Virus record (IMG/VR): IMGVR_UViG_3300045988_005753 | Direction: 5' to 3' (one strand) | DNA: 64,000 nt | Source of the DNA: a virus | Lineage: Duplodnaviria; Heunggongvirae; Uroviricota; Caudoviricetes | Shown: piece by piece, positions 21,531 through 23,121 of the stretch | Layout of the letters: each line of letters begins with the position of its first letter | How positions within the stretch are numbered: position 1 is the stretch's first letter | Notes under the pieces: model-generated | The model's database searches: none | Seen by the model: the letters and a program-made list of their open reading frames with translations, nothing else | What the model was told of the DNA's origin: nothing | Made by a program: the position numbers and the translations under genes

Positions 21531-21641
21531 AGGCTACTGCCATCCTTCCATACATTACCTAACCAAGCCGAACATCACACAACCAGACCGAGCCGCACCC
21601 CGCCTTATTAAAAGACCCTGTTTAAAGACCTTTTAAAAAGG
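21531..21641 (-). repeat. intergenic module copy 1: GT-rich tract (CA-rich on + strand) plus conserved ~39-nt AT-rich core
   Basis: + strand 21531-21602 has almost no G or T runs (GCCGCACC motif); core CCTTATTAAAAGACCCTGTTTAAAGACCTTTTAAAAAGG at 21603-21641 is nearly identical to 22878-22915. Confidence 0.5.
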
Positions 21642-21657
21642 AGCCTCCAAAGAGGCT
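21635..21657 (-). terminator. rho-independent terminator after gene 21669..22109
   Basis: AGCCTC (21642-21647) and GAGGCT (21652-21657) form a stem; on the - strand it is followed by CC then TTTTT. Confidence 0.45.
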
Positions 21658-21668
21658 ACCTAGTCAAC

Positions 21669-22109
21669 TTAGAAAGGTTTTCTACGTTGCTTGTTAATGT
21701 TAGCTTTCATAGCAGCTAAATGGTTTTGCTGTTCAATTAGTCGTGAACGTTCTTGATGGCTAAGTGCCATAGTGTTCACATTCTCAATTGCTTGAGTGGC
21801 TTGCTTTAAAGCTCGACCAATCTTACCAGACATTTTACGTTTTGCAATAGTTGCTTGATGTTTAGGCTCAACCACACGATAACCAACACCCATTGAAGCA
21901 ACCAGATAAATCTTCTCTTCTTTAAGAAGCTTTTCAATAAACTTCTCAAGTCGGTTTAGACGTGTAAGTGCATAAGCCTTCATTTCATCTTCGTACTTAA
22001 CAATGTCACCTTGATAAGTTGGCTTCACAATACCTAAGAAGGTATCCATCTCAGAGTGTGATACAGTGTCACCGTAACTAAACTTTGCTGCTAATGCTTT
22101 TGTATTCAT
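21669..22109 (-). CDS. hypothetical protein
   Basis: 146 aa ORF, basic C-terminus. Confidence 0.45.
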   Translation of the reverse strand: MNTKALAAKFSYGDTVSHSEMDTFLGIVKPTYQGDIVKYEDEMKAYALTRLNRLEKFIEKLLKEEKIYLVASMGVGYRVVEPKHQATIAKRKMSGKIGRALKQATQAIENVNTMALSHQERSRLIEQQNHLAAMKANINKQRRKPF

Positions 22110-22111
22110 AA

Positions 22112-22714
22112 TTAAACGTTACCTTCTGAAATAACTTCTACAGAAAAACGACCAAAGCGTGGACGCCAATCACCTACACCACAAAGGTTACCAGCATTTT
22201 CCAGAACCATCAAGAGTTCCTCTTTGGTGATTTGCTCTTCATCGAACATCAAACCGAACTCTACAGACCAGTCACGGAAGATTGGACGGTAGCTCATAAC
22301 TCGTGCTGTACCAATCTTAACAGACTTAGCATAGATAAAGTCTGGATTCTTAGCGAGTTCTTGTGGGTTTGCTGGACAGTTTTTGATAGTCATTGGGAAG
22401 ACTACATCTGTCAGCATAATGGCTCGGTCAATTACCTTACCAAGTTTGTTGAGTTTTGCACCAGACTTGATACAAGCCTCAATCATCTCACCGTTCATAA
22501 CAAAACCTAGCTGCTCATCGTAGTAACAAGAGGTTACCAGTTGGCTTTCTGCTAAGAGCGCATAGTCTTCGTCAGTCTTTTTACGTTTACTAGACAGAGA
22601 CTTGTGATATTTTGTCAGAGGGTTTAACGGGTCTGACAGCGTATCAGCGTGGCTCAGGAAAGGACGAGTACCAGTGATTTTGATATTTAACAGTTTCATA
22701 GCATTTAGCTCCAC
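22112..22714 (-). CDS. hypothetical protein
   Basis: 200 aa ORF; GGAG 4 nt upstream of the ATG at 22714. Confidence 0.45.
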
Positions 22715-22790
22715 ACTTTAGTTGATTGTTAAGTTGTTTGTAAAGAACCCTCAATAGAAGACTCTTTAGAAACTTGGTAGATTTTTAACG

Positions 22791-23121
22791 TGGCTACTAC
22801 CATCCACCCATACCATACCATACCAAACCTGACCAAATCTTGCCGCACCCAACCTGACCTCGCCTAACCTTACCACACCTCATTAAAAGACCCTTTTAAA
22901 GACCTTTTAAAAAGGTAAGTCTCATTTTAATGTAGCTGAGACTAACTACCCATACCTTACCGCACCGGACCTTACCGGACCGCACATCGCCGCACCAAAC
23001 CAAACATCACATTACCTGACCTCACCGCGCCTTACCATACCTCACTTAAAAACCCTCTTAGAAAGACTCTTAAGTGATGCTGGTGAGTACCCGTTGGTTT
23101 ATGCTGCTCAGTATACTCACC
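22791..23121 (-). repeat. intergenic module copies 2 and 3: two tandem units of hairpin + AT-rich core + GT-rich tract
   Basis: Hairpins GGTGAGTA/TACTCACC (23082-23121) and AGTCTCA/TGAGACT (22918-22943); core at 22878-22915 and a degenerate core at 23046-23072; CA-rich tracts 22791-22877 and 22945-23046 with GCCGCACC and TACCATACC repeats. Confidence 0.5.

Follow-up and report, generated by a model that had tools for sequence, protein, structure and literature searches.

The three GT-rich tracts of this phage are genes for the guide RNAs (vrRNAs) of a Viral Interference Programmable Repeat (VIPR) system. Between 23137 and 21516 on the − strand of the window (the 64,000-nt stretch of DNA analyzed here) there is almost certainly an entire type II VIPR system belonging to the SUSP1 clade, the carrier being a Felix O1-like myovirus. 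VIPR, a phage-encoded, CRISPR-like, RNA-guided DNA silencer, was first described in 2026 (10.64898/2026.04.26.720920, 10.64898/2026.04.26.720927; hereafter the VIPR preprints). The literature on it consists of these two preprints from one laboratory and one PDB entry. By this newly described route to RNA-guided DNA recognition, a protein filament reads a pentamer-repeat RNA, two bases of each repeat being exposed to address double-stranded DNA with a one-base gap. VIPR already explains the tracts and, striking as the observation is, the locus is of an already known kind; the window adds no new principle and provides an independent computational replication of the VIPR code, with 51 guides and 18 satellites.

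Two guides, vr_up1 and vr_up2, lie upstream of vipr and one, vr_dn1, lies downstream of vap1. In the order of transcription, the elements are as follows:

23110..23137, − strand: sigma70-type promoter TTGACA-N16-TATACT, 11/12 consensus positions, kept in relatives
23042..23077, − strand: leader stem-loop before vr_up1, version B, TCACTTAAGAGTCTTTCTAAGAGGGTTTTTAAGTGA, 8-bp stem
22952..23041, − strand: vr_up1 repeat tract, 18 DGYNN units
22909..22951, − strand: vr_up1 3′ tail, H-type pseudoknot (S1 GTAG:CTAC, S2 AGTCTCA:TGAGACT), then T5
22880..22913, − strand: leader stem-loop before vr_up2, version A, TTTTTAAAAGGTCTTTAAAAGGGTCTTTTAATGA
22810..22879, − strand: vr_up2 repeat tract, 14 units
22776..22809, − strand: vr_up2 3′ tail, pseudoknot (S1 GTGG:CCAC, S2 GGTAG:CTACC)
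22741..22770, − strand: degenerate leader-like copy 5′ of vipr, not followed by a repeat tract
22112..22699, − strand: vipr, 195 aa, RAMP-type RNA-binding protein, match to PDB 36pp
21669..22109, − strand: vap1, VIPR accessory protein, 146 aa, 99.3% identical to the ORF after vipr in phiSUSP1
21635..21660, − strand: intrinsic terminator after vap
21605..21639, − strand: leader stem-loop before vr_dn1, version A
21550..21604, − strand: vr_dn1 repeat tract, 11 units
21516..21549, − strand: vr_dn1 3′ tail, pseudoknot (S1 AAGG:CCTT, S2 GGCAG:CTGCC)

The promoter is the top-scoring site within 20500-24500 and, judging from its sequence, would drive the vrRNA-vipr-vap operon. An earlier note on this DNA, made from the letters alone, had recognized three modules on the − strand with a conserved core and a degenerate third copy; all of these are present, the core corresponding to the version A leader stem-loops and the degenerate copy to the version B leader at 23042..23077. 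The GC hairpin that it described before each core also exists, but belongs to the preceding unit, as the pseudoknot of the previous guide or the vap1 terminator. Its placement of the tracts between a terminator and the next promoter holds for the downstream tract, but not for the two upstream tracts, which lie downstream of the sigma70-type promoter (23137..23110) and upstream of vipr.

Each tract is built of uninterrupted 5-nt units D-G-Y-N-N on the gene strand. When the entire 64 kb was scanned for GG at a 5-nt period, scores of 8-9 out of 10 were reached at the three tracts only and on the − strand only, with a maximum of 4-5 elsewhere; periods of 3, 4, 6 and 7 gave no signal. The earlier description of the tracts as almost purely G+T was overstated (G+T 72-78%, A 9-17%, C 7-13%) and overlooked their defining feature, the strict pentanucleotide register (G/T/A)-G-(T/C)-N-N, while GGTGCGGC, listed there as a motif of its own, is merely two adjoining units (GGTGC+GGC..).

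Repeat statistics were compiled from 649 units in 51 distinct arrays of 16 related phages. Position 1 is G at a frequency of.79, T at.15 and A at.07, and never C; position 2 is G at.98; position 3 is T at.88 and C at.12, with no purine among the 649 units; at positions 4-5, which are free, all 16 dinucleotides occur. Across the 16 phages GGY is fixed and NN hypervariable, and Vipr and Vap are 97-100% identical between phages with scrambled NN letters. The arrays of relatives range from 9 to 19 units, and in 54 of 56 the stretch between the nearly identical flanks divides exactly into 5-nt units. The repeat tract of vr_dn1 recurs as an identical copy in the relative L009 and as a one-base variant in L011. 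The absence of purines at position 3 agrees with the published Vipr pocket, which in the available text of the VIPR preprints “sterically excludes purines” (10.64898/2026.04.26.720920 /.720927). All three tracts have the form of VIPR arrays (at least 4 and typically 9-16 YNNGG units, GGY kept, NN hypervariable), and the 18 units of vr_up1 fall outside the published range of 9-16. A period-5 DGY pattern in exact multiples of 5, with hypervariable NN between invariant flanks, was enough to flag the system here. The earlier note would have given up its proposals if the tracts were unconserved beside conserved flanking genes; this is literally the case for the NN letters, and the hypervariability of NN is a functional signature, not counter-evidence.

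Those proposals included R-loop-dependent replication origins, recombination or packaging signals and two-tetrad G-quadruplexes. The G-rich non-template strands would then act in cis, their G-quadruplexes and persistent R-loops priming replication or stimulating recombination. This would suit the strong G-over-C excess of the transcribed-sense strand, with a computed GC skew as low as −0.75, the GG runs 3 nt apart and the strong promoter upstream of the first tract. However, with the G-quadruplex term of ViennaRNA on, the minimum-energy folds of the three RNAs contain no G-quadruplex, and in the solved complex, as far as described in the available text, the guanines are held one by one by the protein (10.64898/2026.04.26.720927). 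Neither a G-quadruplex nor an R-loop has any need for a pyrimidine behind GG, a base other than C in front of it, a fixed 5-nt spacing or tract lengths exactly divisible by 5, and neither accounts for the 0/649 units with a purine at position 3 and 0/649 with a C at position 1. Nor does either account for the period-3 agreement between the NN letters and a foreign element, described below, and the gene flanked by the tracts encodes a solved RNA-guide-binding protein. We regard this cis-acting explanation as highly improbable. The recombination and packaging readings find no support either, and the physical genome ends of a relative adjoin homologs of wV8 gp055/gp054, not the gp094-096 homologs of this locus (PMC4837284). 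Two other suggestions of the note, protein-binding arrays and structured noncoding RNA, were right in kind, with Vipr-bound repeats and a pseudoknot at the 3′ end.

The identity of the flanked gene is clear from its product, which matches PDB 36pp_D, “SUSP1 Vipr protein”, with E = 4e-128 and 191 identical residues among 194 aligned (98.5%). The two proteins have the same letter at 12 of the 13 contact residues named in the cryo-EM preprint (H17, K33, R39, E71, M72, K82, K88, R138, C173, D177, W178 and R179); at position 175 the preprint names T and our protein has V, and across this segment the solved SUSP1 chain does not differ from ours. A single-sequence AlphaFold2 model of Vipr was unusable (pLDDT 40), and the fold assignment, a minimal RAMP with RRM core, G-loop and thumb, rests on the full-length match to the solved SUSP1 Vipr. 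The adjacent gene, vap1, has its counterpart in the ORF that immediately follows vipr in L006 (phage phiSUSP1), giving the locus the neighboring vap gene of VIPR systems. From the match of Vipr to SUSP1 Vipr and of the second gene to vap1, we therefore assign the locus to type II VIPR. Searches with both proteins yielded nothing significant in Pfam, no match in NCBIfam and only families of unknown function in PHROGs (phrog_5926 for vap1). In at least 118 records of Felix O1-like phages vipr is labeled “hypothetical protein”, and the repeats, unexplained, have been listed as “DR_4” since 2009 (wV8); both could now be re-annotated.

All versions of the guide RNA tail fit one H-type pseudoknot with covarying stems, S1 in three versions and S2 in at least five, as in the pseudoknotted 3′ tail of VIPR guides. 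The terminal GGTAT unit appears to be part of the tail and not of the guide. The tail of vr_up2 is also found on the own vrRNAs of satellites integrated in E. coli genomes, which carry orphan vrRNA copies without a downstream gene to regulate. We located these satellites by BLAST with the vrRNA tail and sampled 18 loci from several hundred; relatives are present in 568 of 5426 E. coli genomes, about a tenth of the complete genomes. Strains that carry one include EC12 (NZ_CP070229) and B1W1 (FORC_041).

With the rule that one target nucleotide is skipped between successive NN pairs, 29 of the 51 guides match the ~12-kb E. coli satellite (18 loci) at 85% or more of their NN letters. At this threshold and in the same loci, skips of 0, 2 or 3 nt gave 0/51 guides, and unit-shuffled guides gave none. 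All three guides of the window match under the 1-nt-skip rule. For vr_up2, 26 of 28 NN letters match where the satellite tape-measure gene has its ribosome binding site and start codon (L016, 9467..9426), a score reached by 0/150 shuffles (maximum 23); its predicted target sequence is GTGAAATATGAGCAATGAGCAAATTTACAGTTGATAGTTTTA. The weakest match is that of vr_dn1, 19 of 22 letters over the ribosome binding site and beginning of a gene for 96 aa in the satellite (L028, 8500-8532), which beats 150/150 shuffles (maximum 18/22); in another run, one of 3 shuffles scored 18/22 (0.82). Units 7-17 of vr_up1 match inside the tape-measure gene (L016, 8642-8674) at 21 of 22 letters (0/60 shuffles reach this) and, from the match coordinates, the skipped base is the codon wobble position. 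The six 5′ units of vr_up1 have no match in the 18 sampled satellites, and long arrays such as this one may be used over their 3′-proximal ~11 units only.

A search for self-targets within the window found none (top self-matches 64-73%). In having NN letters that match a competing mobile element under a 1-nt skip, without self-targeting, the guides agree with those of VIPR systems. Scans of IMG/VR for the exact gapped patterns of vr_dn1 (22 specified bases) and of the last 10 units of vr_up1 gave no match; exact matching is too strict, and these satellites are probably poorly represented there. The product of window positions 8963-9727 has 75% identity to the baseplate protein of the satellite; for the tape-measure proteins, that of the phage being encoded at 6714-8294, identity is 34-46%. 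It is only from this shared tail-gene homology that we take the satellite, an integrated ~12-kb element, to be a parasite that would exploit this phage.

The arrays also resemble a cis-acting leader. In the TRAP-trp leader RNA of Bacillus, 11 (G/U)AG triplets with 2-3-nt spacers are wrapped round a protein ring, and in both systems conserved triplets recur about every 5 nt, separated by free spacers, and a single subunit of a homo-oligomer binds each triplet. TRAP-like attenuation, in which a ring or filament protein bound to the arrays would control termination at the following hairpins, is suggested by this resemblance and by the position of vr_up1 just upstream of vipr, between the promoter and a hairpin with T5 that looks like an intrinsic terminator. 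Whereas TRAP acts in cis on its own transcript, with information-free spacers and a fixed ring stoichiometry, VIPR acts in trans on DNA and its spacers are informative. The period-3 target matches show that the spacers carry target information here, and attenuation does not account for these matches, the hypervariable NN and the range of 9-19 units, the array downstream of the operon, or the orphan satellite copies. As a general explanation it is very unlikely; as a side role, the vr_up1 tail with its T5 may serve as a partial terminator tuning vipr expression.

The arrays show local slippage (GGTCA x4, GGTAT x3 and 10-nt duplications), and the number of modules differs between relatives. In L004, L008 and L014 guides abut in pairs with neither vipr nor vap between them, which suggests recombination between the flanking repeats. 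Recombination between modules is probably real, either incidentally or as a means of exchanging guides. The slippage, the variable module number and the abutting guides could be taken to mean that the tracts are neutral pentanucleotide microsatellites or repeat cassettes (the wV8 “DR_4”) that promote recombination and modular exchange of early-gene cassettes. This reading is very improbable: neutral repeats would not preserve a G in 98% of units and a Y in 100% amid a turnover of every one of the 16 NN combinations, and the match to satellite genes would be unexplained. Similar cassettes are known as PeSLs, promoter/stem-loop cassettes that flank shuffled early genes of T4-type phages. They share with this locus repeated promoter- and terminator-type modules between early genes, variable copy number and apparent recombination deletions, but a periodic GGY/NN tract and a guide RNA gene are both lacking in PeSLs.

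That the + strand of the tracts, rich in C (~44%) and poor in G (7-13%) for 55-90 nt, provides Rho-loading (rut) sites stopping antisense transcription into early genes has next to no probability: its invariant letters are purine-C (A/G then C), unlike the pyrimidine-C preferred by Rho, loading needs no strict 5-nt register, and VIPR covers all remaining observations. Several further candidates were rejected, as none accounts for free NN beside fixed DGY or for the target matches: initiation sites for primase (with 5-nt primers and G-Y as in the recognition triplets of T4/T7/SP6), boxA/boxC-like sites for Nus antitermination or sites for cold-shock proteins in the core (GTCTTT), a sponge for CsrA (the tails contain GGA), GT-rich DNA of a Chi-like or RecA-preferred type, and arrays of Shine-Dalgarno-like sequences. 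The tracts are not a CRISPR array, their units being 5 nt long instead of ~23-47-nt repeats with spacers. The Cas families of Pfam and PHROGs have no match among the six neighboring ORFs (20534-23322), and Rfam at a permissive threshold gave no hit within 21300-23400.

For the VIPR of SUSP1, the available text of the preprints reports vrRNA expression, the RNP, DNA binding, silencing and structures as demonstrated (10.64898/2026.04.26.720920, 10.64898/2026.04.26.720927). Its vrRNAs are ~100-nt RNAs that co-purify with Vipr, according to small-RNA sequencing and pull-down (10.64898/2026.04.26.720920), and GFP and lambda cro/cI assays revealed programmable transcriptional silencing of double-stranded DNA (VIPR preprints). 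With anatomy, conservation pattern, pseudoknot covariation, protein identity and target matches established in this analysis, the near-identical parts of our phage would be expected to behave as in SUSP1 with regard to vrRNA expression, Vipr binding and silencing. The host-type promoter would transcribe a leader, vr_up1, a second leader, vr_up2, vipr and vap1, the third guide, vr_dn1, lying past the vap terminator. One Vipr protomer would bind each 5-nt unit, with G-G-pyrimidine buried and the two variable bases exposed, and the resulting filament, polymerized on the vrRNA, would be capped by the 3′ pseudoknot. The exposed dinucleotides could then pair with double-stranded DNA, skipping every third target base, and pairing would produce a protein-held R-loop that blocks transcription. 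The guides are apparently addressed to an integrated E. coli satellite. During infection the system probably serves to keep a parasite of the phage silent, and this silencing would presumably benefit the phage.

Besides the near-identity of Vipr and vap1, the locus shares with the type II VIPR of phiSUSP1 (PDB 36pp), as far as the latter is described, the GGY/NN pentamer vrRNAs, pseudoknot tails, gene order, host range, targeted E. coli satellite family and 1-nt-skip rule. The NN letters of the guides, in contrast, are wholly different, phiSUSP1 has one guide upstream and three downstream where our phage has two and one, and the 18-unit guide, of which only the 3′-proximal 11 units were matched, is longer than the published 9-16 units. 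According to the available portions of the VIPR preprints, VIPR is similar to the Class 1 CRISPR effector backbone (Cas7/crRNA, e.g., Cascade) in that RAMP/RRM-fold protomers polymerize along the guide, a thumb periodically interrupts guide-target pairing, a conserved structured handle caps the variable guide and an R-loop forms on double-stranded DNA; its discoverers propose VIPR as an ancestor of CRISPR effectors. Unlike in Class 1 CRISPR, there is no repeat-spacer array here, nor cas1/cas2 or another cas gene among the six neighboring ORFs. The VIPR guide is noncontiguous, with two paired and three protein-bound bases per 5 versus five paired and one flipped per 6, the target skips one base in 3 and no PAM is needed, and VIPR is phage-encoded and directed against other mobile elements. 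Felix O1-like phages serve in Salmonella and E. coli typing, biocontrol and therapy, and encoded satellite silencing bears on their performance on satellite-carrying strains (~10% of complete E. coli genomes).

The conserved leader stem-loop before each guide may be what is new at this locus. It is ~36 nt long. Every phage guide is preceded by one of its two covarying versions and vipr by a degenerate form, but the guides of the satellites lack it. We also searched for the leader as a possible general promoter and found no copy in the window outside this locus; no discussion of it was found in the available portions of the VIPR preprints. Its 3′ arm stops exactly where the first repeat unit begins. 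We tentatively suggest, at somewhat less than an even chance, that the leader could be a dedicated signal for vrRNA biogenesis, such as a processing site, the 5′ boundary of the Vipr filament or a Vap operator.

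The module that the earlier note had described as repeated three times was confirmed in both intergenic regions, in three copies on the - strand. These guide RNA (vrRNA) modules, vr_up1, vr_up2 and vr_dn1, lie upstream (the first two) and downstream (the third) of the genes vipr and vap1, and their conserved parts are a leader of ~35 nt and a tail of 34–38 nt, which flank a tract of five-nt units. The locus reads, from its promoter onward:

23137..23110, - strand: predicted promoter, 11 of 12 consensus positions
23077..23042, - strand: vr_up1 leader, version B
23041..22952, - strand: vr_up1 tract, 18 units
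22951..22914, - strand: vr_up1 tail
22913..22880, - strand: vr_up2 leader, version A
22879..22810, - strand: vr_up2 tract, 14 units
22809..22776, - strand: vr_up2 tail
22770..22741, - strand: leader element before vipr
22699..22112: vipr, 195 aa
22109..21669: vap1
21660..21635, - strand: intrinsic terminator 3′ of vap
21639..21605, - strand: vr_dn1 leader, version A
21604..21550, - strand: vr_dn1 tract, 11 units
21549..21516, - strand: vr_dn1 tail
21496..21468, - strand: next predicted promoter, directly beyond the vr_dn1 pseudoknot

The tracts had been called almost purely G+T, but their measured G+T content is 72–78%. They follow the signature (G/T/A)-G-(T/C)-N-N, the register of which is never broken. 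When the window was scanned for GG periodicity, values of 8–9 out of 10 were reached at the three tracts only, on the - strand only and at period 5 only, against a background maximum of 4–5. Compared with shuffled sequence, the tracts were not clearly more structured (folding z = +0.4, −2.0 and +1.5).

The window derives from a Felix O1-like myovirus matched by 252 phage records, mostly at 90–99% identity and chiefly from Felixounavirus of Escherichia, Salmonella and Shigella. In the GenBank annotation of relatives, parts of the module are given no more than a repeat label without explanation (“DR_4” in wV8, “repeat_region” in tootiki), and the genome paper of Felix O1 is silent on these repeat modules. 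Comparing the window with 15 relatives yielded 56 arrays, 51 of them distinct, with 649 units. All 15 relatives carry arrays at the same two sites and on the gene strand, with 1–3 modules on each side. Between phages, leader and tail are near-identical and the array interior is unalignable; array length, ranging from 9 to 19 units, is an exact multiple of 5 nt in 54 of the 56. Among the 649 units of these 51 arrays, C never occupies position 1, where G (.79), T (.15) and A (.07) occur. G makes up.98 of position 2, and position 3 is a pyrimidine throughout, T in.88 and C in.12 of units; positions 4 and 5 are unconstrained, with all 16 dinucleotides occurring. Such a categorical constraint beside free positions points to a reader that grips three bases and either makes use of the remaining two or disregards them. 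A TRAP-like RNA-protein wrap, our working idea from this pattern, was abandoned with the decisive protein match.

The two open reading frames between the arrays belong to no named family in Pfam or NCBIfam, and their PHROGs families are of unknown function. The vipr product, Vipr, aligns with “SUSP1 Vipr protein” (PDB 36pp, chain D) at E = 4e-128, with identity at 191 of the 194 aligned residues. The structure preprint (bioRxiv 10.64898/2026.04.26.720927) names 13 contact residues, 12 of which carry the same letter here; at position 175 the window has V where the preprint gives T, and in this segment the solved chain agrees fully with the window. The second frame was assigned to vap1 because it is 99.3% identical to the gene following vipr in a related locus (L006) that is phiSUSP1 at 100% identity.

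[quoted passage not shown] According to both, Vipr is a minimal RAMP protein that polymerises on vrRNA of alternating GGY and NN, one protomer per repeat. Pockets in Vipr enclose the guanines and the pyrimidine, and the pyrimidine pocket “sterically excludes purines”. The exposed NN pairs recognise double-stranded DNA with every third target base skipped, which produces a protein-clamped R-loop that silences transcription. The locus in the window is a near-identical member of the VIPR clade characterised there. The finding is genuine, far above chance and biologically remarkable, and its explanation has already been given by these preprints and by the deposited structure.

We found vipr in at least 118 Felix O1-like records, labeled “hypothetical” in all. 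Distant full-length homologs (22–44% identity), likewise annotated “hypothetical” throughout, occur in Gordonia phages, Pseudomonas phage LESphi2, a Mycobacterium abscessus prophage and Listonella phage phiHSIC. A 100% identical copy in the “Staphylococcus phage SA1” record suggests Felix O1-like sequence in that record.

When complete E. coli genomes were searched by BLAST with the locus, the only matches were stretches of ~90 nt that comprise array and tail and lie in unannotated parts of 147 chromosomes. The matched sites belong to a ~12-kb integrated element, a satellite, with genes for a serine recombinase and an HNH endonuclease, phage baseplate and tape-measure genes, and small ORFs; some copies also encode an AP2/HTH regulator or a Dam-type methylase. 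Its insertion lies within yecE or in the wrbA–ymdF or tonB–yciI interval, and 568 of 5426 complete E. coli genomes contain a relative of it. We sampled 18 loci (L016–L033; for example L016 4945-16944, E. coli EC12, NZ_CP070229.1). They contain 1.5–2.6 kb of unannotated DNA that bears a vrRNA belonging to the satellite, its tail the same as in the phage, and none of the 18 has a vipr gene. The satellite guides lack the phage leader motif and have their own -10-like box instead. At the protein level, the satellite's baseplate gene shares 75% identity with the phage's own (8963-9727, + strand) and its tape-measure gene 34–46% with that of the phage (6714-8294, + strand), which fits an element exploiting this kind of phage.

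Each guide was recoded as NN-x-NN-x and scanned against the 18 satellite loci (342 kb). With one base skipped, 29 of the 51 guides reached at least 85% NN match; with 0, 2 or 3 bases skipped, or with shuffled unit order, none did. Of the guides in the window, vr_up2 matches 26 of 28 letters over a stretch spanning ribosome-binding site and start codon of the tape-measure gene in the satellite (at most 23 after shuffling). For vr_dn1 the match is 19 of 22, over the ribosome-binding site and beginning of a satellite gene for 96 aa (at most 18 after shuffling). Units 7–17 of vr_up1 match at 21 of 22 letters within the tape-measure gene in 6 of 18 satellites (shuffle maximum 19); here the skipped base is the wobble position of its codon, and where satellites differ synonymously they do so at bases that the guide skips. 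Units 1–6 of this unusually long guide (23041-23012; NN = AT AA GC GA CA AA) are unmatched at the tape-measure site in the 18 satellites, and may be surplus, the remnant of a fused guide, or directed at a satellite variant outside the sample. The guides have no self-targets in the window; vr_up2 does not match the phage's own tape-measure gene, its best self-match being 18 of 28.

Matching the arrays of the window and the 15 relatives unit by unit against the satellites (39 guides with targets) gave 0.91–0.99 for the third to fourteenth units counted from the tail, 0.74 for the penultimate and 0.37 for the tail-adjacent unit, almost always GGTAT. This last unit looks like part of the tail. Degenerate units match their targets equally well (0.89 and 0.92 with T or A at position 1, against 0.87 for GGY).

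The proposals of a protein-binding array and a structured noncoding RNA were right in kind, the modules being VIPR guide RNAs that Vipr would bind. If the tracts were an R-loop origin or a signal for recombination or packaging, the positional constraints and target matches would be left unexplained; genome ends in a relative adjoin homologs of wV8 gp055/gp054, not the gp094–096 homologs of this locus (PMC4837284). The suggested G-quadruplexes are not supported: none was present in the minimum-energy fold computed with the G-quadruplex term on.

A single H-type pseudoknot fits every tail version, with covarying stems (S1: GTAG:CTAC, GTGG:CCAC, AAGG:CCTT; S2: AGTCTCA:TGAGACT, AATCGGA:TCCGATT, AATCGAA:TTCGATT, GGTAG:CTACC, GGCAG:CTGCC). 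The conserved core described previously is the leader stem-loop, whose two versions share an 8-bp stem register ending at the first repeat. In this register 92.6% of cells are paired, against at most 64% in slid controls, and three pairs are changed on both sides, although, in evolutionary terms, the two versions represent only about one contrast. The leader motif does not recur in the rest of the 64 kb, and the available text of the VIPR preprints holds no mention of it. It may serve as a processing site, a filament boundary or a Vap operator.

Transcription from the promoter at 23137..23110 would run through leader B, vr_up1 and its pseudoknot, a T5 run that is likely a partial terminator, leader A, vr_up2 and its pseudoknot, vipr and vap. 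Vipr would then assemble on each repeat tract and silence satellite genes at or near their 5′ ends. In this phage all three steps, from expression through assembly to silencing, most likely proceed as in SUSP1, where the preprint experiments were done and to which the locus is near-identical. We infer that silencing the satellite benefits the phage.

The vipr gene is not universal. In several relatives two guides abut, an upstream-type and a downstream-type one, with neither vipr nor vap between them or elsewhere in the stretches of DNA compared:

L004, 4145-4352
L008, about 780-926
L014, 2555-2762

This is the expected outcome of recombination between flanking repeats, and from their sequence these loci look like cases in which the protein genes were deleted in this way, leaving orphan guides. 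The patchy occurrence of vipr, the leader stem-loop, the tail-like last unit, targeting by degenerate units and the long guide may go beyond the preprints, all as minor points.

Downstream of the locus, a 127-aa ORF (21423..21040) would be driven by the predicted promoter at 21496..21468, and its N-terminus, MKKILLAAAMVMAMNLPVNA, resembles a signal peptide. Beyond it, three genes downstream of the locus, lies a gene for a 109-aa helix-turn-helix regulator of the HTH_3/XRE type (20534-20863, - strand).
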